A stretch of DNA of 64,000 bases. Origin: Ruditapes philippinarum (lineage: Eukaryota). Positions 5,594-64,000 of this stretch are shown one piece after another. The first letter of the stretch is position 1; each line of letters starts with the position of its first letter. The stretch covers positions 1 to 64,000 of the forward strand of contig NW_026858491.1 in the NCBI RefSeq assembly GCF_026571515.1. The letters are read 5' to 3'. Below the pieces are notes generated by a model, which made no database searches, was not told where the DNA came from, and saw only the letters and a list, made by a program, of their open reading frames with translations. The translations under genes and the position numbers were made by a program.

Positions 5594-5926
5594 ACATGTT
5601 TTAGAAAAAAAGAGCCATTTTTGGGCTTCACCCTTTAAATTTAAGGTTTCTTTACAGCCTTTTTCAGAAACCCCACCCGGGGAACCCCAGTAATTTAAAG
5701 TGTGATGTTTTTTGCAACAATCAGGTTTTAGTACAAAGATTTTTTCTTTCCTTCATTCACTAGACAAATAAATTTCTTTAAGGGCTGGGAAAAACAAACT
5801 TTCTTAACAAAATAATATTATTTCTTTTTATCTGTTAAAAATTTATTTCCCTTTAAAAACCCATGACATATCTAAGTTTTAAGCCCTAAACCCGAGCAAA
5901 AATAAAAATTTTTTTTCCTTCTTTGT

Positions 5927-7057
5927 TTAAACACTTTCTATAAAAGACGACAAGGTAGTTATTTTGCCTTTAACATAATTATTGGACTCACTATGGGGCT
6001 GTTTTTTTACTTGGGATGGTGCATTTTCTTTAACAATATCAATACCATATACCGAACAGGCAACACGTGATCTTTCTTCAACAAATTTCAACAATTCAAA
6101 GAATCTCGGCTCTTTGCCGCACTCATAGATTGTATGTGCAATATCTGCCCACTTGGTTCGCATATGCATAGGCAAACGTCTAACAATTTGTCTTAAGTTT
6201 TCTGAATTATTTACATCAGAAACAAAACCTAATTGGGATAAGGTCATATGACATCTTTGCATATCTAATGCTAACTTAAATAGTTCGTCAATATCATAGG
6301 CTTTAATTTGAGGGTCATACAAAAGTTTATCAATGTAATTTCTGGCAATTACATGTGGCCTACCATAACGTGACTGTAAAATAGCTTTAGCTTGTCTGTA
6401 CCCTTCATTTGAATCTAACAATACGCAATCTTCAATACATGATTTCGCCTCACCATTACAATATTGAATAAGGTAGCTTAATCTAAGTCTATCATCACTT
6501 ACTTTTTCCACTACGTTTGTCTCAAAATTCTTGATAAACTTGCAATAATCTATCGCAGAACCATTAAATGTTAATAATTCGGGCTTTGGTAAGTTAAACC
6601 CTTCTTGTAATATTGTTGCTAGTTTCTCGAATGCTGAATTACTGCTATCACTCGAGCCGGAAGTTAAGGTATTGTCTGTCTTACCATTTAAATCTTGTAG
6701 ACTGTTCTGTAACCTTAGATACGGGCTCACCATCAATCTGTTCTGTAAAAACACATGAGATCCTGCACTAGCTGAAGTATCACGTGGTACATTTGTGTGA
6801 CCGGAAGTAGAAGCATTTATGTCACGTTAATTTTCCTTATGCGTATGTTCCGTAATTCGTGCACTTACTGAAATTTCTTCGTTAATCTCAGTAAAGACTG
6901 ACTCCTTAATTCTAGCAATTTCTATCTCGCTCTCCTGTTCTAATAGTTCACGTTCATTCTCTATTTCCTTTTGCTGCCGTTCAAGTCTCTGTTTTTCTCT
7001 CAACATTTTTAATCGCTGTTCTGCAACAAGCCGTTTTGCATAGCTGCACGTGATCAC
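5927..7057 (-). pseudogene. BEL/Pao gag remnant (coiled-coil N-terminus plus LPKPEL..FNG capsid-like region)
   Basis: ORF 5927-6754 (LPKPELLTFNG, RLSYLIQYCNGEAK, L.SRYG, RRLP...KW) and the E/R/K-rich coiled-coil ORF 6827-7057. Confidence 0.88.
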
Positions 7058-8192: not shown

Positions 8193-9494
8193 GCTATTAT
8201 CTGAAAGTAAACCTGGCAGGGGTTTATTACATTATGCAAAACATATCCTTTCAAAGTTAATCTATAAATATAAATAATAGTTAATACACCCTTGGGAAAA
8301 GTCAATTGCAATAATTTGAATCGTTTGAGAAAAATGCCCAAGATAACAAGGTGAAATAACACATGAAATATCTCTAAACTCTTTGTGTTTTAGTTTTTAA
8401 TAAAAGTTAAATAGCATTTGTCATATCATTCGTGTTAAGGGACTCCAGGGGCGTCGCCAATTTTGCAATATAATTCTGGGCCTTTCGGGCTTGAAGTGAC
8501 ATTCTAAATATTTAACTTTAAAACCTACTTAAGCTGTTGTGTATAAGATATGCAACGAAATAGGGACATTTATATCCACCTTAAATATTTTTGTGACCTG
8601 TCAAAAGTCCATATAGAAGATGGTGAAAATATTTTATTTAGAAGCGTATACAGTAAAATTTATCGTTACATTCAATTGTTATATATTAACAAGATTCACA
8701 CACATTAACATTCCACACACATTTACAAAACCACACACTTTCACATGACATACACATGAAACAAACCTTTACATGACATAAATCATCAATACAAATGATG
8801 AAAATAAAAAAAAATAAAACACTCAGAAAAAGAATATTTTATCGGATAACATTTAATTACATCAGAAGATATTTAAGTGGAAAGAATGGATTTAGCTAGC
8901 TTAGCTGACAGTTACAGTAATGCTAATATTTTAGGTTTTGTTCATTTGCTTTTCAATTCAATGAATAATTGTCATAGTTCTAAAAACGATAAAAAATTAA
9001 AAAAAAGGTGAAAAGGGAGTTTTCAACATCTTATTTGTACATTATAAAATTAAAGAGTGAGAGACATGCGTCAAAGCTTGTCCCCCTAGAAAATTTACAA
9101 AACTTAAATTTAAAAACATACTTTTATATGAAAACTTTAGGAAAGGCATACATTGTTTTACTTGTGTATATAATGTAAATCAGTTATCTACATGTAGTAT
9201 GCAAAATATGACTTGATAAATTCCAGTTATCAAATATTTACCCAATAACAAAAATAGTTTGACTATTTTTGTTTTATGTAATTATGTTGCTCAGTTGTGC
9301 TTTATAAAAGCTAGAATAATTTTTGTTTACTTATTTCATGTTATTTCTGTAAAATAAAATCGGAAAACAAACAAGATCAAATTACAAAGTTAATGTTATA
9401 AGAAATATGGCAGAAAGAGAAGTAACTCATAAACTACTATCCAAAAATTTAAGAAGATGTTCATTTCAATTTATTTCTGTTTAGTTCTTGCATG

Positions 9495-10444
9495 TTGCAC
9501 CATAGGGATATCTGAAGATAGAATACAAAACATAAAATAATTGATCATTTTGCCTACAATCAGAACATGATACTATCGAATTTACTTAAAACAATGTTTA
9601 AACACACTTGTTTAAAAATTCTTTGGTTTGTCGGGCAATTTAAAATCATTCATAAATAATTACAAGTGTAAAATTGAAATGTTTTTCATTGATTAAATAA
9701 AGGTCAGGTAAAACATTGTATCAGTTAGTGATAGTATGAAAATTATCAGTTGAATAGTTAATTGATCTACTTACCGAAACGAAATGCTGCACAAACTATA
9801 TCATTCAATGTGTGTAGCCGTTTATAGCATATCCACCGCAGCCTCCCTTGTGCATTTCAAACTGGTAGAAGTAATTACATGGAAGATATTTCGAAGCTTT
9901 TTTACCCACATCTATCCAACTTCTCATTAATTTAGTATAGCAGCATCGCTTGTAATAACCATTTGGATCGTTGTTGTTAGGATTGACAAAGAAAGCCAAG
10001 TAGCTATTTGGATTTGCATCACAGTTTTTAAAAGTGTAGTCGACGTCGTTGGCTCTGTATCCCTGTTTAGTTTTGCTTTTAGCAATAGATGCTGGTAAGA
10101 ATCCAAGATATATGTAAGGACCCATTGTTGCATGGTTTATTGGTCTGGCATAACCAAAATTTGAGCTGTACTTCACATTAAGTGGTACGGAAAATGTGAA
10201 GAGATCTGCTTCATCACAGTATCATACTGATGACCATTTGAGCGCAAAAGCCTTACTAACACTTTGGAATGAGATCGCCCAAGAAGTCCGAAATCGGCGT
10301 TTGCAGCCTCTTCTTTGGATATAAATGTGTAGCCATAGTTTCGGTGAAATTCGCAATACACTTTTTATTGCTCGCCTCGATTATTTTAGAACGAATATTC
10401 GCCACTTTTCCTTTCATCGAGTTTCCTTTCACAGGAACAGGAAG
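9495..10444 (-). pseudogene. Pseudogene copy A of the uncharacterised secreted-domain family
   Basis: Main exon 10444-9775 is homologous to 55570-54890. It has two TAC>TAA stops, frameshifting deletions (ORF pieces 10173-10361 and 9805-10176) and a deletion near the C-terminus. The terminal exon starting at 9511 has lost its stop (TAA>CAA). No signal-peptide exon was found, and homology to copy D ends at ~10712. Confidence 0.9.
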
Positions 10445-13199
10445 CTTTCAATAGGCAAAATATCACATAAGCTTCTCTTAATTTGAATACATTATAGATC
10501 TAGGCACAATGTATTTAAGACAGTATAAACTGTACAAAGTAGTGATAGATATTTAAAAGTAATAACATACTGTTGACATATTTAACAATAAGTGAAGTCG
10601 ATTTTTAATATGCAGGTTATGTCAATTTCAGTTTATATATATTTTACTTATAGTCTATATAAAACAGTACGCTAAGTAACTGAATAAAGAAATAAAAAAT
10701 AACAAACATGACAAATTTAATCAAAGTGCTGCAGCACTGAATGCGACGGACATGCAACCGGAGAGACACCAAGGCTTCTTTTAGAAAAAACAAAACAAAA
10801 TAAAAACAAAACACAAAATATATAACAGAGAAAATTTGTTCCATACAAGTTCGAGATTTGTAGAGCAATATATTTTGTGTCCCAAATTGATATAATTCAG
10901 ATTTTCTACTTTCAAGCACTTAAATACAGAATGAAATTTATGCCTAAAAACTCTGGTCAAACTTGTAAATCAGTGTCCTTATCGATTTATTCTAAGAAAT
11001 GATATGTAAATAGAAAAAAAACTATCAACGAAATATTTTCTAGAATAAATCCAGGCAAATAAACTTCAAACATAATACATTGTACATTTGAGAATGCTAT
11101 TTAGAATTGCTTCGTGTTTATATCATAGTGGCATACAGACAATAAAATATAAGTCATTTGTATTTTTATTTCTCTTGGATATGTCTCATTAAAAAAAAAT
11201 TGGTTAAAATCATCAGCAATTAATAGTGTATTTCTTAGATTTTTTTATTTACAAGGTAAAATGATGTAGAGGCCAGAGCACATCGTTTTTATTTTAATTT
11301 AAATGTCACTTAAGCACTACAGTGTTTAGTTGTCCTTTTCAACTTCACACTAAATTCCATTTTCAACTTGTTTGCTTCTTACAATTGTATAGCATTTCTA
11401 AAACTATTGCATTACAATCCGCTAGTTGTACTTCCTAATCGCCTGTCCAAAAATCAGAACAGTAAAGCAGAATCTATTTTTAGAATATCGAAGGTTAACT
11501 CATATCATGACCTAGTAAAATATGTAAACAAACCACAAGAATCGGAAGTAGAACTGATATTATAACTTCCTTACCATGATTTCAAGACTACATGGCGGTA
11601 AAGTGTCTTACATGCATTTTTCAAAAAATAGATATTTATACTAGCCATTGAACTGTATCTAATATATTAATAACTGCTGAATATTCAGCTAAACCCGCGT
11701 ATGAGTCACGAAAATAGTTCTTCTTTTATTAATGCGCGAGTTATCCTAGAGTCAAAAAACTTTGATTTGTTAATAATAATGTTTTGTATAATGTAGAAAT
11801 ATTTATTTCCTACTAATAATGTCTTGGAACTCAGAGGTTACACTTTATTGTAGTATAATTTGCTGTCCTACTTTTTCGACAGCGGTAAATCGTTTCAGCA
11901 GTAATTTGCATATTGCGCAATAATACTACGGGACTACAACGTTTTTATCAATAATATACGTTCATATTTTAACTTGGATAACTTAATTTGAAATTGAAAA
12001 GGCTTAATATGGAAGACATTAAGATATCCAGACAAAGTATGGGAGTTTTGAAGGATCAAATTCATGTACTATTTCTTGGGCTGTTAATTGGTTTAGGACA
12101 CATTGCGCGAGTGTAGCCAACGAAATCCCATGTGTAGATGACTTAGCTCTGAACGCGCCTGAGAGCGCGTCCGTCGCAAAAAGCAGGCAACATACCCTTA
12201 GGATGATTATACAGTATTCAAGTAGGAATACTGGAACCACCCAAGTTGAAAAAGGCCAAATAGAAGAAACTAAAAATGGCACATAACACATGTAACATGT
12301 ATTCACAACAATTCAGTCGTGCTGAACGATCTTCAAGGATCGAAAATATAACATCTTTGATTTAATGAACGGAGAGACTTTTTACGGCCGCCACACGGCA
12401 CAAATAACACTGATGTGACCATAAAGTCACGCATCCTTCAAAAGATCCAAGGGAAATAAACCGAAAAAGTAATAAGGCTTATGCTTCAACAAGTCAAAAT
12501 TGTTAATATCAATTTTGGCAAAGATGAAATACTTTGAACAAATATATTTTAAAAAGAAAAGGAAACCGGGTTCTTAAATATTTAATTTTTAAAAAATATA
12601 GGAAGATTTTGTGACAAATTTAATTTATTCGTTAAACAATGTTCATTATCATAAATTCTTTTCCAAAATTCGTTTCTTCACAGACATCGACAGATAAATA
12701 AACATCTATGCCATTTGTCATACCTATAAACAATGGCTGTTAATATTTGCCATTGTTTTGAGCTCTTATTTTATTTGCATTTGCTGTCAACAAAAATGGT
12801 ATTGCTAATATTACATTACTTTTAATAACAGTGTGATATTCTTCTCAATTGGAGTAGATGTCATAGATTCATCATATATATTAGATTAAAAATAAAATGA
12901 CCAAATTCTAGTTTCTTGTTAGAAATCTTTGTAATAGATAATGAATGCACATTATTCTTTTAAAGAAAACGCAACTAATTCTACTTAAGAAAAAGCGAGC
13001 AAGAGTTTTTAACGTTAAAAAATGGTTTTAAAGCATATGAGGTGCCTTTCATCTGCAGAAAGTAGCAGTGAATGTTGCTTGTCATAAAAATAGCGGAATA
13101 TAAACAAAGCAGTGTTTTACTTCTATTTAAAATACAATATAACTGCTCTTATTCAGGTAGGTTGCAAATTAATAAGTTTTGAAAATTAAGACAGGAAAC

Positions 13200-41100: not shown

Positions 41101-42797
41101 ATCAATATTTTCTAATATCAAATTTGAGCAAAATTTATCTTTAATTTAGATATTGATGATTGTGCTAGTTCACCATGTTTGTATAGAGGGACATGCAATG
41201 ACGGGATCAATTACTACAATTGCACATGTTTGCCTGGGTTTAGAGGAGAGAACTGTGAAATAGGTACGTCGTATATCCAAATCTTTCTTTCATTTTGAAC
41301 ATTACAAACAGAAAATGCATTGCAAAGGATTTACAATGCATGCATAAATCATATACATGTATTCAATTTAATGCGTTTGTCATAACTTATCTACGGTTGA
41401 AACCTTACATGAATTGTGTTTTAACTTCAGGGGGGGGGGGGCACCTTTCTATCTGATCTTTATTTTACGTTCTTTAAAATCATTTATCAAAAAAATCGTT
41501 TAACAGAAGTTTTAAAAATGAAATAAAACGCTACTATTCCGTACTCCTTTTTTCATTTTCTAGTGACACGTTCTTTACATTTCTCTGTCAAATTCGTTTG
41601 GATATTTTTCCTGAATGTAACAAGTGGCTTTCTGGTCAATTTAATGAAAACTTGTTTTCATGAATCTTTATAAATGTCATAAAACAAAAACTTGTTGGTC
41701 TACTATTAACCTTGATTTAACCTTTTCAATCTAAACGGTAATTACGAAAGAAAAACAATACAGTTTCAAGTCAGAATTCAATATAAATAAAAAATAACTA
41801 TGTGATCGATTGTCTTTATTATAGCGCTCAGAGGTTGTGATGATTTACAACCCGAGGACAGAGTAAATGGGGAATATGTAATCTACAATAGCCAAGACAA
41901 GCCATACAAAGTGTACTGCGAATTCCACGCAAGTTATGGCTACACGTTTATTTTAAAAAAAAATGCTGGGAAGGCTGATCTGAACCGCCTCCGGTCATAT
42001 TATACTGAAGTGTTAGTAAGACACTTGCGTTCAAATGGACATCAGTATGATACTACAATGGAACAGATCAGTACTTATTCTTCATTGAATATAAGTATCC
42101 AGTACAATGCTAATATTGATTATAAAACTCCAATCAACAGTGCAACATGGGGCTCTTATTTGTATGTTGGCTTCTTACCTATATCTATCGCAGCAAGTAA
42201 ATCTACACAGGGATACCGAGCAAACGGTAACGACTTCACGTTCTCAAATTGTGATAGTAATCCAAATAGCTACTTAGCTCTCTTTGTCAACCATAACAAT
42301 AACGATCCTAATGGAAAATACAAGAAATGCTGCTACAAACCATTGATGAGATTTTGGATCGAAGATGCTGCTAACCAAGCTCCAAATTACATTCCGTGTA
42401 ATTACTTCTACCAGTTTGAGATGCACATGGGAGGATGTGGTGGATATGCAATCAATGGCTACAACACTTTGGATGACATTGTTGGTGCTGCGTTAGGTTT
42501 CCGCTTTGGTATGTAGGTCAATTTTTTAACTGACTATAATGTAATTCATAATTTTTAAATTTAAAAAATCGAGTGTCTGGCAACGTACTGTATTTTCAAT
42601 AATTCAATATTTTAAATTGACAGCAGCCAAACAATGATATAATAAAAAGTGTAACTTAACATTATTGCAAAAGTATTCAAAATATTCAATGTTACCTTAC
42701 TAGTATTTTAGTAATAGAAGTGCAAGTCGCTTATATAGTTTTAATCTATAATTGACACCCATTTTAATTTTTTCTAATCCATTTTTCAGATATCTAG
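38126..42797 (+). CDS. Secreted protein (~361 aa): signal peptide, Cys-rich segment, EGF-like, calcium-binding EGF, then the uncharacterised ~228-aa domain (copy B)
   Basis: Seven GT-AG exons in compatible phases with no stops: 38126-38152, 38603-38671, 39678-39753, 40177-40284, 41150-41263 ([37 protein letters not shown]), 41825-42508 and 42790-42797. Total 1086 nt. The first exon is least certain. Confidence 0.85.
40352..40500 (-). mobile_element. 5'-truncated SINE (3' portion) in an intron
   Basis: On the minus strand it ends TATGACCTATACTGTGTCGGTGTGACGTAAATCCCAACAAAAA, which resembles a mollusc core-SINE tail. Family recognised from memory, not searched. Confidence 0.55.
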
Positions 42798-44810: not shown

Positions 44811-46224
44811 CATACTTAAGTTAATTTATTACATAACCGTGCAATAATATGTTGTAGAATTGAATGTTTGGAATATTTAACATCGCGACATAAAAATTTA
44901 TGTAGCAAAAAAACGAAAAATCATGAAAATGGCGTCTGTCTTCTAATGGAGGTAATGTAACTGGAATAACTTGTTTTGAGGAAGCAACCAGAATACATAG
45001 ATAGAAAATGAAATTGGTCCATACTAGAGCGAGAGTAAGCGTAACTCAACAGAGAATGGTAAGTATAAAGAAATGTTTAAAGCCCTGTGAACTGTAGAGG
45101 GCCTTGCAAGCAATCTTATTTTATAATCGTTCTCCATGACCATTATCTGAAAGTAAACTTGGCAGAGATTTACTACATTGTGCAACAAAACCCTTTTTCA
45201 AAGTTAATCTCTATATAATAGTTAATATACGCTAGGAAATTGTCATTTGCAATGATTTAAAGAATTTAAGAAAAAATGTCTTAAATAACACGGCTATAAA
45301 CATAAAAAATCTTTAGCTCGTTACGTTTAGATTTTTAAAAAAAGTTTAATTAAACTTTCAAACCATTAAGGGACTTCAGGGGCACCGCCAATTTTGTCAT
45401 ATAATTTTGAGCCTTGCAGGTTGGAAGAATTGGGATTATAAATATTTAACTTTCAATGCCTTCTAAATCCACTGTATTTATGATATACTATGGACTAGAG
45501 ACATTTGCATTCACCGGAAATGTTTCCATTACATTTCCAAAGTTTTACATAAAAGAAGGTGAAACGTTTAATTCCAGTTGCGTATACAATACAATTTATC
45601 GGGTTTTTTTCAATCAGTAGTTTCAGAGATTCAGTAATTTCAGCTGACAGTAACGGTATTGCTACTTCTTATGTTTTTGTTAACTTGCTTTTCAATTTGA
45701 ATTAAAACGATAATTGTCAAGTGCTAAACAGGTCAAAAATAGAAAAAGTGCAAGAGAAGATGTATTTTTTATAATTGATAGCTTTTCTTTTAAACTCCTT
45801 TTTGTACAAGATACATATACAGTCAGAGTTATGCGTTTAAAGCGCCTCCAGATAAACGAAGAAAGATAAAAAGCAAAATATTTTATATGAACAGTTTAGG
45901 AAATGCGGAATTGTTCAAACCTTTATATAATGTAAATCATTTATCGACATGTTACATGCAAAATATGTTCTTATTAATTCCCTTAATCAAATATTTACCC
46001 AATAATAAACACAGTTAGGCTATTAATAACGCACGTATCATGTATTAGTAATTATGTTGCTCAGTTTTGCTTTCTAAGTCGATAAACAAAAAAGATTAAA
46101 TAGTTAATGTTTAAGCAAATATTGGAGAAAGTCGAAAACAACTTTCTGAAGAGTTCGAATGAAGTTTGACCACTTGGTATACATGTATATTTCATTCAAT
46201 TTATTCTTGTTAAGTTCTTGCGTG

Positions 46225-48120
46225 TTAAACCATCGGGATTTCTGAAGTAAATAAAAACAAAAAGTTAAAATTGTTTATCGTTTTGTCTAAAATCTGAACA
46301 TCGTACTAGCCAATTTACGTAAACCTCATATTAAACAATAATGTTTGACAAGGAGAACTTGAATTTTATTTGCAATAATGTTATGTAACATTTTTTAAAA
46401 TTATTTTGCTTGTCAGGCAATTTGCAATGATTCGTTTAAAACTATTGAGAAACGTAAAATCGAAAGGGTTTTCATAGATTAAATAAAAAGTCAGTTAAAG
46501 TATCGTATCAGTTAGTCATAGTATATAAAATATCAGTTAAATAGCTTATTGACCCACTTACCGAAGCGAAATCCTAATGCTGCACCAACTATGTCATTCA
46601 AAGTGTTGTAGCCGTTTATAGCGTATCCACCACAGCCGCCCATGTGCATTTCAAACTGGTAGAAGTAATTACGTGGAAGATATTTCGAAGCTCTTTTACC
46701 CACATCGATCCAATTTCTCATTAATTTAGTATAGCAACATCGCTTGTAATTACCATTTGGATCGTTGTTGTTAGGATTGACAAAGAATGCCAAGTAGCTA
46801 TTTGGATTTGCATCACAGTTTGTAAAAATGTAGTCGACATCGTTGGCTCTGTATCCCTGTTTAGTTTTGCTTTTAGCGATGGATATTGGTAAGAATCCAA
46901 GATATATATATGAACCCATTGTTGCATGATTTATTGGTCTGGGATAACCAACGTTTAAGTTGTACTGCACACTTAGTGGTACGGACGAATGCGAAGAGAT
47001 CTGCTTCATTACAGTATCATACTGATGACCATTTGAGCGCAAATGCCTTACTAACACATGTGAATGTGATTGTCCGAGGCGTTTGAAATCTACCTTTGCA
47101 GTGTTTTGTATGGATATAAAAGTGTAGCCATAGTTATGACGAAAATCGCAATACACTTTGTATTGCTCACCTCGTCTATTGTAGAATGAATATTCCCCGC
47201 TTTTCATTTCATTGAGCTTCAAATTCTGACACGGGCTGGAAGCTTTTAATAGAAAAAAATCACATTCATATAACTTTTCATATTTGAATACATTATAGGC
47301 ACTTTTTTATAGGCACTTTGTATTTAAGACAGTCTTAACCGTACTCAGTAATGAAATATATTTATAATACATTTGTAATAGACAGTAATAACATGTTGTC
47401 GATATATTAAGCAAATAATATGTACTTTTGCAAATCGATTCTTAATATGGTGGTTAATTTACATATCTTTTACTTATAGTCTATATAAAACAGTATGTTA
47501 TGTACTAGCACATGAATGAAGTAAGAAAATATCTGAACGTATGAAAGGGGTTGGATTATTGCAAAAATATTTATTACTTTTATTACAAACTAGAGTTGTA
47601 AACTTATTAGCGAGAGATGCCTGTACAATGTACAAAGCATAACTTCTTCAATTAGTTCTTAATTTGCAACATTCAATTTCCTACAAAAATGTCTTTCGAT
47701 GCAGCCTTACTTCTTCGACATACAGCAAGCAATCATTTAAAGAGAAACATTTAGAAATGAAGTATCCTAGATTGTTTCTTATTCACTATTTCCTTAAGGA
47801 AATTATTTATTTTGATTGAAGATGGATGCACGTTTCAGATGTGTTGTAATATAACCACAAAGGCCTATACGCCCGATAGCTTAACTACAGAACATTTAAA
47901 CCCCTCACCATATTTGCATAAATGCACTACAGAGCAAGAATAATTTGACTTTCATTTAAATTTGAATTTTAAATGCTTATAAAAAATAAAAGCGATAAAA
48001 GTGTATATAACAACAATTTATTCAAAATAACAACTGCCTATGCAAGAAATAATTACCTCCGTCTGATACTCCAGAATAGTTGAATAGAAGGACGAGTGAT
48101 GCAATAACTGTTACCTTCAT
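46225..48120 (-). CDS. Secreted uncharacterised-domain protein, copy C (~253 aa)
   Basis: Exons 48120-48057 (signal MKVTVIASLVLLFNYSGVSDG), 47242-46562 (681 nt, phase 1-1) and 46241-46225 (EIPMV*). GT-AG sites and an open frame throughout. Confidence 0.9.
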
Positions 48121-54601: not shown

Positions 54602-56099
54602 TTACACCATAGCGATATCTGAAGATAGAATGCAAAACAATATGTAAATGATCAGTTTGCCTAAAATCTGAACATGATACGATCGAATTTACTTAAAACA
54701 ATGAAATAGGACTTGTTTAAAAACAAATTGGTTTGTCAGGGAATTTGAAATTATTCATAAATAATTACAACCGTAAAATCGAAAGAATTTTCATATAGTA
54801 AATAAAAAAAAGTCAGGTAAAATATCGTACCAGTTATTAATAGTAATACTATGTAAAGTATCAGTTAGATAGTTTATTGACCCACTTACCAAAGCGAAAT
54901 CCTAATGCTGCACCAACTATGTCATTCAAGGTGTTGTAGCCGTTGATAGCGTATCCACCACAGCCGCCCATGTGCATCTCAAACTGGTAGAAGTAATTAC
55001 ATGGAAGATATTTCGAAGCTTTTTTACCCACATCGATCCAATCACTCATTAGTTTAGTATAGCAACATCGCTTGTAATAACCATTTGGATCGTTGTTGTT
55101 AGGATTGACAAAGAAAGCCAAGTAGCTATTTGGATTTGAATCACAGTTTGTGAAAGTGTAGTCGACATCGTTGGCTCTGTATCCCTGTTTAGTTTTGCTT
55201 CTAGCAATAGATGCTGGTAAGAATCCAAGATATATGTAAGGACCCATTGTTGCATGATTTAAGGGTCTGGCATAACCAACATTTGAATTGTACTGCACAT
55301 TAAGTGGTACAGAAGAATGTGAAGAGATCTGCTTCATTACAGTATCATACTGGTGACCATTTGCGCGCAGATGCCTTACTAACACTTGGGAATGAGATTG
55401 TCCAAGACGTCCGAAATCGGCCTTTGCAGCGTCTTCTTTGGATATAAATGTGTAGCCATAGTTTCCGTGAAATTCGCAAAACACTTTGTATTGCTCGCCA
55501 CGGCTATTGTAGAACGAATATTCCCCACTTTTCCTTTCATCAAGTTTCAAATCCTCACATGAACAGGAAGCTTTTAATAGACAAAATATCATCATTTTGA
55601 TAGCTTCTCTTAATTTGAATTAGGCACAATGCATTTAAGACTGTCTAAACTGTACATAGTAGTGTAAGATATATATAAAAAAGTAATAACATATTGTTGA
55701 CATATTTAGCGATAAGTGAAAGTCGATTTTTAATATGGAGGTTATGTCAATTTCAGTTTATATATATTTTACTTATAGTCTATATCTTTATAAAACAGAA
55801 CGTTATGTAAATGAATAAAGAAATAAAAAATAACAACTTAACATGACGGGGTATGGATTTCATACTGTAAAACATGTATTGCTACTTTAATGACTAGATA
55901 ACAATCCTTAAAGCAAGTCCAAAACGGCAAAATTGAAAATGTTGCAGGCTCGGGTTAGCCTTAATGTTCCTTTTTATTTATTTTATAGCAATGCATCAAA
56001 ATAAATATCAATTGCCTAAAAATAAATGAAGAAATTACCTTCGTCTGAGACAGAATAGCCGAATAGAAGGACGAGTGTTGCACAAACTGTCACTTTCAT
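54602..56099 (-). CDS. Secreted uncharacterised-domain protein, copy D (~252 aa)
   Basis: Exons 56099-56039 (signal MKVTVCATLVLLFGYSVSDE), 55570-54890 (681 nt, phase 1-1) and 54618-54602 (DIAMV*). GT-AG sites and an open frame throughout. Confidence 0.9.
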
Positions 56100-58197: not shown

Positions 58198-59819
58198 CAC
58201 AGCTGTCCTGTATCTAGGCAGTCCAAAGTTGGTAAATATTTCTTTGAAGAAAGGATGGTTAGTGTTTTTTTTTGTGATCGTATCTGTCTGCAAACTGTTA
58301 CATACTGAGTTAGCAAAATCTTAAATAACAAAATGTAAAAAGTGTTAAATTAAATAAGCCAAAAATGCAAATAACAAAGTTTATATAAGTACGTGTTTAA
58401 CGATTACACTCAACTTGTAGGTTGAAGTTTTACAAATAATAAAAACTGTAACAAATTAAGTTTACATAATAAACTTGCAATATTTTTATATTATTAGTGA
58501 TTCCATTTAATATAGTGGGTGTAATGAATTACAGATATACAAAATGTAAATACAATATACATGCATTTCAGCAATAAGTGTATAATGTCATGGTTGTGAT
58601 CTAAATATAAACACTATAACAATATACAAATATGTTTAATAGATATAACGGATCATTACTGATTTGTTTCACCACACAGTGTATCCCTATGTTTACTTAT
58701 TTGCATTAAAATATGAAAACAAAGATCAACAAGGAGAAGTGGCATTCAATGAACGCATCCTCTTATACAGCACAGAAAATAATTTCATTTGTAAAAGGTG
58801 AATTATAAATTGTTACCCTTCTATTACATTTAACAATCTTATTTTCTTTTCGGCTAGTTGGGACATATGCACAGTAATTAGACAATTAGACAAATTCAAT
58901 TGCCACATGACCATCAATGTGTGTATATTAAAAATTAATGTATCATCTTGGATAAATGAGCCGTGCCATGACAAAACCAACATAGTGCGTTTGCGACCAG
59001 CATGGATCCACAGCTGTCCTGTATCTAGGCAGTCCAAAGTTGGTAAATATTTCTTTGAAGAAAGGATGGTTAGTGTTTTTTTTGTGATCGTATCTGTCTG
59101 CAAACTGTTACATACTGAGTTAGCAAAACCTTAAATAACAAAATGTAAAAAGTGTTAAATTAAATAAGCCAAAAATGCAAATAACAAAGTTTATATAAGT
59201 ACGTGTTTAACGATTACACTCAACTTGTAGGTTATGTTTTACAAATAATAAAAACTGTAACAAATTAAGTTTACATAATAAACTTGCAATATTTTTATAT
59301 TATTAGTGATTCCATTTAATATAGTTGGTGTAATGAATTACAGATATACAAAATGTAAATACAATATACATGCATTTCAGCAATGAGTGTATAATGTCAT
59401 GGTTGTGATCTAAATATAAACACTATAACAATATACAAATATGTTTAATAGATATAACGGATCATTACTGATTTGTTTCACCACACAGTGTATCCCTATG
59501 TTTACTTATTTGCATTAAAATATGAAAACAAAGATCAACAAGGAGAAGTGGCATTCAATGAACGCATCCTCTTATACAGCACAGAAAATAATTTCATTTG
59601 TAAAAGGTGAATTATAAATTGTTACCCTTCTATTACATTTAACAATCTTATTTTCTTTTCGGCTAGTTGGGACATATGCACAGTAATTAGACAATTAGAC
59701 AAATTCAATTGCCACATGACCATCAATGTGTGTATATTAAAAATTAATGTATCATCTTGGATAAATGAGCCGTGCCATGACAAAACCAACATAGTGCGTT
59801 TGCGACCAGCATGGATCCA
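58198..59819. repeat. Near-identical ~810-bp tandem duplication
   Basis: 58198-59010 is repeated at 59009-59819 with only a handful of differences; junction GGATCCA/CAGCTG. Confidence 0.95.
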
Positions 59820-59957: not shown

Positions 59958-61783
59958 AATTATGTTTTATTTGTCTTTCTACAATATTGAGTCATATACA
60001 AACCGGTTGACTTCGTCAATTATTACGTATTTTGCAAGTCTTTAAAATACATGTATATACCTTTCTGAAAACAAAACAAACAAACGAAATGACACCGTTC
60101 TGGTCCCGACTTCCTTTTTAAAATCACGTGAATTAGTAGGTTTTTGGATGGATCGACTTTCATTTGTTTGCCTCTCGTTAGTATTACAAGCTCAACATTC
60201 ACAATGAATTAGCTTCCTTAAATGTTTACTCCAAATAATAAAGGAAGAGTTTCACATCTAACAAACAAGCTAGAATGGGTAAGATTAATGCTGTTTACTT
60301 ATTGGTCAAAAGTTGACAGTATGGGCTTATTGTTCTTCAATCAAACACAAAACCTTACATTGTAGTATATCAGTAACTAATTTACATATAGTCGAACCAT
60401 ATGCCCGTATAAGGAAATTATTTAAAGTGATATATACATTTTGAAATCGTATAAATTCACACTGAGTCTGTGGGAATTGTGCAAACCATTTGAAGTTGAA
60501 AAAAGACTTGTAAGTTATTTCTTTTTTCCTTTTTTCTTTTTTTCTTTTGATGTTTTTATTTCTTATTTTTTGTTGTTGTTTATGGCAATTTAATAACACA
60601 TGTACATGTTGGTCTGTTGCATATCCTTTAATAGGTCAATTTAATCGGTTTCACCAAACGCCATAGACGACCACCTAGTAAAGATAGTTAATGATCAATT
60701 CATTGGTTCATTAGAAGAAGAAGGTTATGTTTGTAAGGCTTTTGTTATGCGCTAAATTTAGAGTTCTACTGAAGGTGGATTGAATCTCAACACAATGTTC
60801 CGTTTTATATTTTAATGTTTCTTTCTTAGTGGAATACCACAGATAATATATAACATATACACAGGTTATCCTGATGTTTACAAATTAATATTAAAACAGT
60901 AACAATTATTTCTAGTGGAAAGCCACAATACAATGTTATCACTTGGAAATCCAAAATCTAACTGTTCTAAATTTTCTACATGTATCTTTACAATAATTCT
61001 AAAATTGATTTCGTTTTAACTGACCAATAGAATTTTAACATTTTTGTGTCTTAAATAACAAAATGACCAATCAGGTTTCAATACAAATAATGTAACATAG
61101 CAACATAGAATTTATAACAACAATCATCACCTGGATATTTTATCAGTCATAAGGTTTAACAACATGATAAGTACAGACAGCTTAATTGACCTTATCACCT
61201 ATATATTATAAAACTTTTAGCACAGTTGATTGGACAAAGAGGAAAAACCGCATTTTAATCTTCCAGTTACATAATTTTAAATTTGACATCTGTTATTGAA
61301 ACATATACTATTTGTAACTTAACATATTTGAAATTTCACAAATTTTGTCTTGAAAATATGACTTTTTAGAAAATGATCATATATATAAATATTTGTGTTT
61401 AAAAGAAAATCATCATGCATATTTATTCCTTTTTTTTTGTAAATGAATTTTATCATTTTTCGGCTGCACAACACTTCTCCCTCCTTTAAGACTATTTCAC
61501 TCCTGTGAAATGAAGCATAAATACTATATAACAAAAATAAATATCATTAAATTAGAATACTGTTTACATAAGATATTCAGTTACAGAAATATATACTTGA
61601 ATATAAAGCACCGATTTGCTGAAAAGCGTAAGTACCATTCACTAATAATAAATATTCTAATCACTGTCTTATTGTAAACAACACAGTTTTAATGACGTCT
61701 ATTTCTGTTGTATTGCCCCCTCTGTCCTTGTTGTCTTCCATCATGATATTGACCTCTCCATTCATGTAGGAACCCGGTTTCGC

Positions 61784-63220
61784 ATGTACTTGAAAGATCA
61801 AAATAAATATTATTGGCCACATATGTACCAGGAAATACTAGATTTTGTTAAATCATGTGACATATGTCAAAGAGCAAAACATACTACACATCAGGTAAGT
61901 ACTCCTCTTAATCCTTTACCTGTAGTAAATGTTTTTGAACGAATGCACCTAGATATCATAGGGCCACTTCACAAAACAACTGATGGATTTGAATATATAC
62001 TTGTCTGTGTAGACAGTTTCTCAAGGTGGGTAGAGGCATTTGCATTAACTAACCAATCTGCTGCAGAAATAGCAAGGGTGTTACATAATGAAATATTTTG
62101 TCGTTATGGGGCACCAGTGTCTATTGTTACAGATAGAGGACAAAATTTCCTCTCCAAACTCATAAATGCAGTATGTGAAATTTACAATGTCACAAGACAC
62201 CGCACAGCTAGTTACAATCCAAAGGCAAATGGATGTTGTGAAAGGCAAAATGCCACAATTATCCAGACATTACGTATGTATATCGATAAAGATCAAAAGA
62301 ACTGGAACATGTTTTTACCAATAGTATTGCAAGCTCTTAGGTCATCACCAAACATTGAAACTTCAGGGTTTAGCCCCTATAAAATGATGTTTGGAGGTGA
62401 AATGAGACTCCCTATGGATGTAAATCTAATACCAAGAGAAACATTAGGAACGGAAGCTAAGCAACATATACAATCCTTGTTGCAAAGACTGAAGGTAATA
62501 CATAATATTGCGAAACAAAACACTGAAACTACTCAGCAAGAATCTAAGGTAAGGCATGATTTAAAAGCTCAACCCTCTGATTTCAGACTTTTAGAACAAG
62601 TATTATTGAAAATTAACAAACATACTCCAGGTCTTACATCTAAACTAGAGTATAAATGGAAAGGTCCTTATTACATAAGACAAAAAGTATCTCCAGATAC
62701 ATACAGAATTGCAGAAAGTAATACACATCAACTTCATAGAGCACCAGTAAATGCAAAAGACTTAAAAAGGTACAATGATCCAGACAACTTTAGGTTTCAA
62801 AGTGATGATGAGCAAATAATTGATGCACAATCCAGTTCTACTGACTATAATGATCAGTTAAATAACCCAGATCAAGGTAATGTAACAAATAACAATGACA
62901 ATAATCAAGATGACCAAACACAAACCCCAAGAAATCAGGTAAGTGACCAAAATAAACAATTAAATGTTTCAAGGGAAAAATCTCCTACACCAACTACTTC
63001 AAACAATAATGATGGGGTATGGTACAAAGCAAATAGAATTTTGAAATTAAGAATAAGAAATGGTATGAAAGAATACCTTATTGAATGGAGCAACAAAAAG
63101 TATAAGCCTACTTGGCAAACAGATGAAAATGTTAGTGAAGAACTGAAACGTTTATTCTATGTTCGATACACTAAAAGTGGAAAGAAAAGAAAAAGACAGT
63201 ACAGATATTTCAATACATAA
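61784..63220 (+). CDS. Ty3/Gypsy retrotransposon integrase with GPY motif and C-terminal chromodomain (pol 3' part)
   Basis: YYWP..CDICQ zinc-finger half; DDE core (HLD, VTDRG, NGCCERQN); KWKGPY; an N/Q/D-rich linker; chromodomain-like WYKANRIL..R...GMKEYLIEW......TWQTDENV. Confidence 0.92.
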   Translation: MYLKDQNKYYWPHMYQEILDFVKSCDICQRAKHTTHQVSTPLNPLPVVNVFERMHLDIIGPLHKTTDGFEYILVCVDSFSRWVEAFALTNQSAAEIARVLHNEIFCRYGAPVSIVTDRGQNFLSKLINAVCEIYNVTRHRTASYNPKANGCCERQNATIIQTLRMYIDKDQKNWNMFLPIVLQALRSSPNIETSGFSPYKMMFGGEMRLPMDVNLIPRETLGTEAKQHIQSLLQRLKVIHNIAKQNTETTQQESKVRHDLKAQPSDFRLLEQVLLKINKHTPGLTSKLEYKWKGPYYIRQKVSPDTYRIAESNTHQLHRAPVNAKDLKRYNDPDNFRFQSDDEQIIDAQSSSTDYNDQLNNPDQGNVTNNNDNNQDDQTQTPRNQVSDQNKQLNVSREKSPTPTTSNNNDGVWYKANRILKLRIRNGMKEYLIEWSNKKYKPTWQTDENVSEELKRLFYVRYTKSGKKRKRQYRYFNT

Positions 63221-63577
63221 GTAATACATGTACTTAGGTTCAAACCCTATTGAGTTGTTATGTTCTTAGACACTTATAGTATTTCAAGTTCTTCAGGTTG
63301 TTGACTTGTGTACTTGGCACATGGTATTTAAATTCTTTTTCTTGAATATAGTTCAGGTCTGTGTTATAAGATGGCAAAAATTAGTGCAGGATGGTTAGGA
63401 TCACTATCTTTTGAACTGAATATGACTGTATATGTGATGACTGAATGTGTGCATTGAATGAATGGTCTTTTTTTTCTTTCTCTTTTTACTTCAAATATTT
63501 AGTTCAAAGGTTAGGCAGATAAAACTGATCACTTTGTTTGTCCCTTTAGTGATTCTTTTCATTTCCTTGTATTCTAG

Positions 63578-64000
63578 TTGCTTCCATTGTCCTGATGCTG
63601 ACCTTGAGCATGATACTATGTAGTCCATCGGTGTCTGGAAAGAAGGTCTCTGACTTGCAACGTTTGAATTATGGGGTTGTATTTGAACCAGTGGATAACT
63701 TGCAGTTGGCAGAAGAGTCATGGATTCATACATTTGAAATTATATTACCAAAAACAGCTAATTTGTTCAGTATTTTTGGTTGTAATAGAAACAAAAAGTT
63801 TTGTGATTTAGTAAATGAAATGTTAGTGGAGATTAATCAAATCCGACAGAGTACAGAAGTTATGATAAATGGTACAATTGCTACTATTAATAAATTGTTG
63901 CCTGAAAAGAAAATTTCAATTAAAAGTAGAAGTAAGCGTGCCATTTTACCTTTTATTGGAAGTCTCTCAAGATCAATATTTGGCACAGCTACAGTAAAAG
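63578..64000 (+). CDS. env: Envelope (env) glycoprotein N-terminus, baculovirus-F/errantivirus-like; runs off the window
   Basis: Frame +1 is open from 63553 to the end: ASIVLMLTLSMILCSPSVSG (signal-like) KKVSDLQRLNYGVVFEPVDNLQLAEESWIHTFEI...C......C...NGT...KSRSKR|AILPFIGSLSRSIFGTATVK. Furin site at 63928-63939. Polypyrimidine tract + TAG acceptor ends at 63577. Confidence 0.82.

Follow-up and report, generated by a model that had tools for sequence, protein, structure and literature searches.

Integrases that end in a chromodomain after the GPY/F module are a hallmark of the chromoviruses (MAGGY, Tf1, and Sushi, and Reina, Tekay, and Galadriel of plants), whose chromodomains carry a TW motif in strand 3. 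The available part of PMC3350952 separates retrotransposon chromodomains into group I, with all three aromatic residues of the cage, and group II, which lacks the first and usually also the third. The errantiviruses of Drosophila (gypsy, ZAM, and Idefix) have no chromodomain and carry an F-type env with a furin site as their third open reading frame (ORF). Both features meet in the “ancient errantiviruses” with a chromodomain known from Cnidaria, Mollusca, and Annelida (Chary and Hayashi, eLife 2026, PMC13524379), a clade that is placed basal to the known chromoviruses and as sister to the errantiviruses without a chromodomain. The sheet of that study records a chromodomain in 28 of 139 elements and in 12 of the 19 molluscan ones, including two from Mya arenaria, and the elements from Mollusca among the rows listed are assigned to ENV_F. 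The words “aromatic,” “readthrough,” “read-through,” and “frameshift” are absent from its main text, so that the state of the cage and the gag-pol junction are undescribed there. At this junction, a −1 frameshift operates in the majority of surveyed animal elements, according to the available part of PMC5009743.

The locus described here lies at the end of the window, which is the whole 64,000-nucleotide stretch of Ruditapes philippinarum DNA that was analyzed (G000:C6978:1-64000 of a 1.41-Gb assembly). The window very probably ends in a 5′-truncated copy of a young Ty3/gypsy element with an F-type env and a chromodomain-tipped integrase, likely a member of the published clade. Its elements, such as Mollusca_Bivalvia_Mare_errantivirus_1 and _2, likewise have gag, pol, and env within long terminal repeats (LTRs), an F-type env, a chromodomain C-terminal to the integrase, and several near-identical copies. 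The features of the locus are as follows.

60743 to 61799, no strand assigned: high-copy interspersed repeat of approximately 1.06 kb, outside the element (blastn, 85 to 96% identity to other loci)
61661 to 63220, forward strand: ORF with integrase, 519 amino acids stop to stop, stop codon at 63218 to 63220
61798 to 63220, forward strand: 3′ portion of pol (integrase) in a 5′-truncated Ty3/gypsy copy, 98.9% identical from 61798 on to the sister copy on G000:C8782 (Pfam Integrase_H2C2 and rve)
61937 to 62221, forward strand: first part of the integrase catalytic core (D,D35E; Pfam rve), D to E spacing of 35, the Glu lying just beyond, near 62240
62663 to 62671, forward strand: GPY motif of the SH3-like C-terminal domain of the integrase (by sequence, with weak SH3_Tf2-1 and Integrase_p58_C matches)
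62783 to 63019, forward strand: low-complexity linker of 79 amino acids (16 N, 12 D, 11 Q)
63020 to 63169, forward strand: chromodomain, three strands and a helix (Pfam, phmmer, AlphaFold, Foldseek, VIA-align)
63023, 63086, 63095, and 63101, forward strand: cage position 1 (Tyr), position 2 (Trp), position 3 (Lys), and Tyr at W+5, by alignment to CBX8
63170 to 63217, forward strand: basic tail kept across the clade, with TxxG and then a K/R run (seen in 46 of the 57 domains aligned)
63553 to 64000, continuing to contig position 65943, forward strand: env, F-type class I fusogen, 797 amino acids stop to stop
63928 to 63939, forward strand: furin site RSKR (env residue 126), followed by a hydrophobic fusion peptide
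contig positions 66472 to 67696, beyond the window end, forward strand: 3′ LTR of the window copy

The truncated copy and its complete relatives

The window copy is without gag, protease, reverse transcriptase (RT), RNase H, and 5′ LTR. Its 5′ break falls at approximately 61798, within the integrase zinc finger, and since the ORF begins upstream of this point, its first 45 or so codons are not element sequence. The adjoining repeat has at least 42 matches in the genome (40 scored among 320 candidates), and repeat and retroelement are both cut at a single junction. An assembly chimera was suspected here, as the break coincides with a GATC and loose ends at GATC occur in two runs deposited as RNA, and this candidate was rejected. 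Fusion to an unrelated repeat through a natural deletion fits better, because GATC is absent from the element side and a short microhomology is present between repeat and element. Joined to an unrelated repeat by such a deletion, the window copy would be incapable of moving. The same repeat also lies within errantivirus pieces, or close to them, on C8049, C2583, C2357, and C7129, which may reflect either targeting or a common repeat-rich environment. No APOBEC-like hypermutation was seen in the window copy, with 6 G>A among its 32 differences from the sister copy, and no tRNA genes were found within the window.

The sister copy on C8782 presents the order LTR-PBS-gag-UAG-PR-RT-RNase H-IN-chromodomain-env-PPT-LTR. 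Its gag spans 314 amino acids stop to stop and its pol 1442, with the Pfam domain order PR-RT-RNase H-IN that is characteristic of Ty3/gypsy, and approximately 180 residues separate RNase H (ending at 759) from the zinc finger (starting at 940), the bridge in which members of the published clade have a “mini” domain after RNase H. The LTRs of 1.23 kb are accompanied by a primer-binding site led by TGG and by a polypurine tract. Between the two LTRs of this copy, 8 mismatches in 1223 aligned bases and 3 gaps were counted (<1%), and this near-identity indicates that the family moved recently. The genome holds at least 45 matches to the LTR, and at least 13 extend over nearly its whole length. 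A target duplication of 4 bp, which is also the length found in gypsy, is exact in four of six insertions checked and has one mismatch in the other two. In all six, the LTR termini are TA..CA and not TG..CA (window copy LTR, L001:5472-6696), and the few bases just past the 3′ LTR of the window copy look like the beginning of the primer-binding site. Mare_2 has LTRs of approximately 1.18 kb and a primer-binding site that shares its first 8 bases with the one seen here. The present element probably represents a further family next to those of PMC13524379.

An integrase that ends in a chromodomain

The catalytic core of the integrase is recognized by Pfam rve with an E value of 6.5e-14. The plan that a sequence-only reading had given for the rest of the protein, with GPY followed by an N/Q/D linker of about 80 residues, a chromodomain, and a basic KKRKR tail, is borne out, with GPY at 62663, a linker of 79 residues, and the tail at 63182 to 63196. 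The motif named in that reading, WYKANRIL..EYLIEWSNKKYKPTW, starts at 63020. A search of the last 70 residues, which it had suggested, retrieves Pfam Chromo at 20.1 bits (E value of 6.3e-4), a match that lies under the curated cut-off of 25.1. In a phmmer search of the PDB, CBX8, CBX6, and CBX4 rank first, with an E value of 2.7e-5 for CBX8. The AlphaFold model, made from an alignment of 58 rows, folds into three strands and a helix with a mean pLDDT of 84.6. All matches listed by Foldseek are chromodomains, with a probability of 1.00 and none with an E value below 1e-3, and the wide structural search with VIA-align places Oxpecker, Rhino, HP1, and CBX7 on top, with Z scores of 7.6 to 8.0. The combination of sequence and fold matches shows that the chromodomain is real. 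A search of full-length proteins with the chromodomain alone gave 1 match among 38 candidates, the word index used there limiting sensitivity.

In the alignment with CBX8, the cage Tyr and Trp are kept, a Lys occupies W+3, and the loop has one residue fewer. The earlier suggestion that the third aromatic had shifted is not sustained, as the counterpart of the Tyr at W+5 in this alignment is a loop residue of CBX8 outside the cage. The same trend was seen across the clade in a set of 57 domains, made up of the query and 56 homologs after one identical row had been dropped. Positions 1 and 2 are both kept in 47 of these, 37 having the first two only and 10 the full three-aromatic cage. An aromatic residue occurs in the loop at W+3 in 11 of the 57, at W+4 in 11, and at W+5 in 9, the last among the nearest relatives, and 25 have none. 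As the third position wanders or vanishes across the clade, loss is the better reading of these alignments. The cage thus differs from group I, which has all three aromatics, in the Lys at W+3, and from group II, which lacks the first aromatic, in the Tyr kept there; its sequence pattern fits neither group. Compared with the chromovirus cages, as grouped in the available part of PMC3350952, position 1 is kept and position 3 is lost.

The case for the chromatin-guided integration that had been read from the domain is weakened by this incomplete cage, and since only 10 of the 57 clade domains have a full cage, reading of H3K9me or H3K27me is doubtful. The chromodomain and basic tail, held on a flexible linker, might well tether the integration complex to nucleosomes. 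Such tethering would more likely rely on a pocket of two aromatics together with DNA contact than on HP1-like reading of H3K9me3, and canonical reading of that mark by a domain of this sequence appears unlikely.

A candidate readthrough signal and an F-type env

In the sister copy, gag and pol form one frame across a single UAG (L009:4816-4818, G000:C8782, reverse strand), in contrast to the elements that use a −1 frameshift. A hairpin lies 3′ of this codon (z of −3.05, with none of 200 shuffles as stable). At 16 of the 24 loci inspected, gag and pol are in frame across the UAG; a further 3 are broken copies that retain the signal, 2 are unclear, and in 3 the junction is missing from the stretch. 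The arrangement of UAG-G, a spacer of approximately 8 nt, and a hairpin of 11 to 14 bp with compensatory changes also occurs at L014, L021 to L028, L037, and L052; the last is an outside contig with 72% RT identity that has the same gag-UAG-pol layout and a chromodomain. Thirteen junctions, 3 of them from one family, were aligned after exclusion of five same-family duplicates, the unclear ones, and L040, which has a different context. UAG-G is invariant in all 13. In the stem, 96.8% of cells are paired and 21 two-sided changes fall in 6 of the 12 pairs, a score biased in favor of the hairpin because the structure was derived from the very sequences scored; none of 500 shuffles reached it, and slid registers gave at most 50%.

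This arrangement resembles the type III readthrough signal, described in the available parts of PMC3159437 and PMC13517186 as UAG-G, a spacer of approximately 8 nt, and a structure, and ascribed to gamma- and epsilonretroviruses in that of PMC1224870. The gag-pol signal of MuLV likewise has UAG, then G, and a spacer of approximately 8 nt before its structure, an H-type pseudoknot, whereas the present hairpin is a simple one of 11 to 14 bp, among the nested folds that were computed, and the RT is Ty3-like and not retroviral. Gag-Pol is therefore likely, on this pattern, to be made through stop-codon readthrough. Gag would be translated from the full-length RNA, and a minority of ribosomes would probably pass the UAG with the assistance of the hairpin to give Gag-Pol. 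Readthrough is not unheard of among retrotransposons, and a survey of gag-pol recoding in LTR retrotransposons from 2003 reportedly found it in a few elements. Within journals that can be read without subscription, no published description of a readthrough signal in the present group of elements was found.

Other contexts were met at two kinds of locus. At L040:1407-1409, the sequence is UAG-CAA-UCU with a weak fold (z of −1.1), a context closer to type I of tobamoviruses than to UAG-G. In a more distant element on outside contigs (L068:713 and L069:669), a UGA separates two long in-frame ORFs, and the stem that follows it after 7 to 8 nt forms a UGA version of the UAG signal.

The env of the element is of the F type as judged from its sequence, with a signal peptide, the furin site RSKR, a fusion peptide, and a transmembrane segment. 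As the third ORF inside the LTR pair, it has the position by which PMC13524379 defines errantiviruses. In the Atlas search, Baculo_F clusters come first (0.93). The nearest named homolog, a protein of Mya arenaria with 54% identity, passes Pfam Baculo_F, and a Pfam search of the window element's own env gave no Baculo_F match. Other named homologs are from Mactra, Ruditapes, Mercenaria, Pinctada, Mytilus, Saccostrea, and Haliotis. A profile of env retrieved no solved F protein from the PDB, with weak heptad-repeat matches only, and its single-sequence model was unusable (pLDDT of 35). Compared with the env of Drosophila errantiviruses, the present protein is longer (797 residues) and has an additional hydrophobic segment as well as a domain at its C terminus. 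The hydrophobic segments lie at residues 585 to 620 and 657 to 687 (residues 585 to 797 correspond to L001:4305-4943), and a C-terminal region of approximately 108 residues with no family match is common to 70 of 95 homologs. An Atlas search with residues 640 to 797 gave nothing above 0.78. By analogy with Drosophila gypsy, it is rather probable that Env would be cut at the furin site and that particles could pass between cells.

Lineage and alternative readings

Among solved structures, the RT of the family is nearest to that of Ty3 (E value of 1e-71), ahead of those of retroviruses and caulimoviruses, with 8r0s at 2e-48 and foamy virus and MuLV at 5e-35 or weaker (MuLV, 1e-33). The RT tree comprises 130 rows, with no named chromovirus among them, and joins 92 of the 120 listed homologs (at least 46% identity) in one group with a base support of 0.86. 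A chromodomain profile matches 73 of the 77 complete pol proteins of this clade (15 of the 92 being too short to judge) and none of 25 complete proteins outside the group, although the profile was built from clade members and hence favors that clade. An independent Pfam Chromo annotation is found in 29 of the 120 listed RT homologs. The tree groups the element with proteins of Haliotis, Pinctada, Mytilus, and Ruditapes, and the closest named relatives among the matches listed are mollusc proteins; no relatives were found in viral_contigs or genome_contigs. From its architecture and these named relatives, the element likely belongs to the published chromodomain-bearing clade. [quoted passage not shown] The distinct lineage that had been proposed from this combination is real, as the 73 of 77 clade proteins show, and its novelty is not, the lineage being already described in PMC13524379; the pairing of chromodomain and env is accordingly no surprise.

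The pairing is found repeatedly among the relatives. Gene models of Mytilus (P0214) fuse Chromo and Baculo_F, a chromodomain and an env match occur together in 15 of the 32 stretches of genome fetched (many of the others being incomplete), and both are present in the outside contig L053. In L024 and L025, the chromodomain is kept and the 3′ LTR follows with no env in between, and L022 and L039 have an env and a degenerate chromodomain, the pol and env frames of L039 being open. Families of both kinds within one genome indicate that the pairing is not obligate.

Several alternatives to this placement were weighed. The least probable, to the point of being virtually excluded, is that env is part of a second, nested element or that the arrangement is an assembly artifact, as might be supposed from the truncation of the window copy and its fusion to a different repeat. 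In the sister copies on C8782 and C9400, gag, pol, and env all lie within a single LTR pair, which rules out a nested env and places it on the element of the integrase itself, as the sequence-only reading had it. The same spacing of pol and env within one LTR pair recurs in other families and an outside contig, and 20 public runs contain 85 to 90% of the words of the stretch. A true chromovirus that recently captured an env is a very improbable origin. The chromodomain after GPY and the basal position of the clade relative to the known chromoviruses in PMC13524379 speak for it; in the same study, however, the clade is sister to the errantiviruses without a chromodomain, the cage is not that of group I, and env homologs with 71% down to 20% identity across bivalves and gastropods fit long codescent and argue against recent capture.

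The two remaining alternatives concern the chromodomain itself. It is improbable that the domain is a decaying relic next to a basic tail that alone has a function, as a nuclear localization signal. The env-bearing families L022, L039, P0096, and P0104 do have degenerate domains, and no feature of the C terminus is kept better than the K/R run, but core residues and length are kept in the 73 matching proteins down to approximately 46% RT identity, while the adjoining linker is unalignable. There is a somewhat better, still small chance of a canonical methyl-lysine reader in which the Tyr at W+5 replaces the third cage residue and which steers insertion to H3K9me or H3K27me as in MAGGY, the precedent given in the available part of PMC3350952. 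Such a reader would agree with the retention of positions 1 and 2 in most domains and of the full cage in some, with nearest structures of Polycomb and HP1 type, with the W+5 aromatic of the nearest relatives, and with a sister copy flanked on one side by an ORF1-like coiled-coil frame and on the other by RT fragments, probably parts of a LINE. The Lys at W+3, the alignment of the Tyr to a noncage loop residue of CBX8, and the 25 domains without a loop aromatic nevertheless stand against it, and one such nested insertion, in a genome rich in repeats, is anecdotal.

The preferred reading remains a young, env-carrying member of the chromodomain-bearing clade. Since the pairing of chromodomain and env is already in print, the element alone adds one more family, and the parts that go beyond the known pairing are a cage pattern outside both described groups and the readthrough signal. 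Together they raise the possibility, more tentative than the placement itself, that a lophotrochozoan Ty3/gypsy clade reached a gammaretrovirus-like design independently of the vertebrate retroviruses, in which UAG readthrough with a conserved hairpin 8 nt past the stop is combined with an F-type envelope and a chromodomain of a third kind (positions 1 and 2 of the cage kept, position 3 lost, basic TxxG-K/R tail) that would read nucleosomes other than by H3K9me3. If this is true, the readthrough signal and the cage type of the clade would be undescribed so far. A covarying stop-readthrough signal in Ty3/gypsy, for a mode known mainly from gamma- and epsilonretroviruses, would bear on whether that mode is ancestral or convergent. 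With its dated copies, the young family also offers natural insertions that could test chromodomain targeting by an env-carrying element.

The public runs recorded as containing the window stretch include no RNA runs. In the RNA-seq runs X23 and X24, reads cover the LTR and none cover the chromodomain. In X21 and X22, filed as RNA-seq, 57 to 58% of the placed reads continue into unlike sequence, many of them at GATC, and these runs look like Hi-C or DNA ligation libraries. Elsewhere in the window, positions 58198 to 59819 hold a tandem duplication of approximately 811 bp with 99.3% identity, which may be real or a duplication in the assembly. On the reverse strand, positions 54861 to 55619 hold a Cys-containing frame of approximately 250 residues with no Pfam match, which belongs to a local multicopy host-like gene family; similar stretches lie near 8584 to 10712, 41836 to 42533, and 45642 to 47532 and at L002:2840-3652 and 5605-6318.
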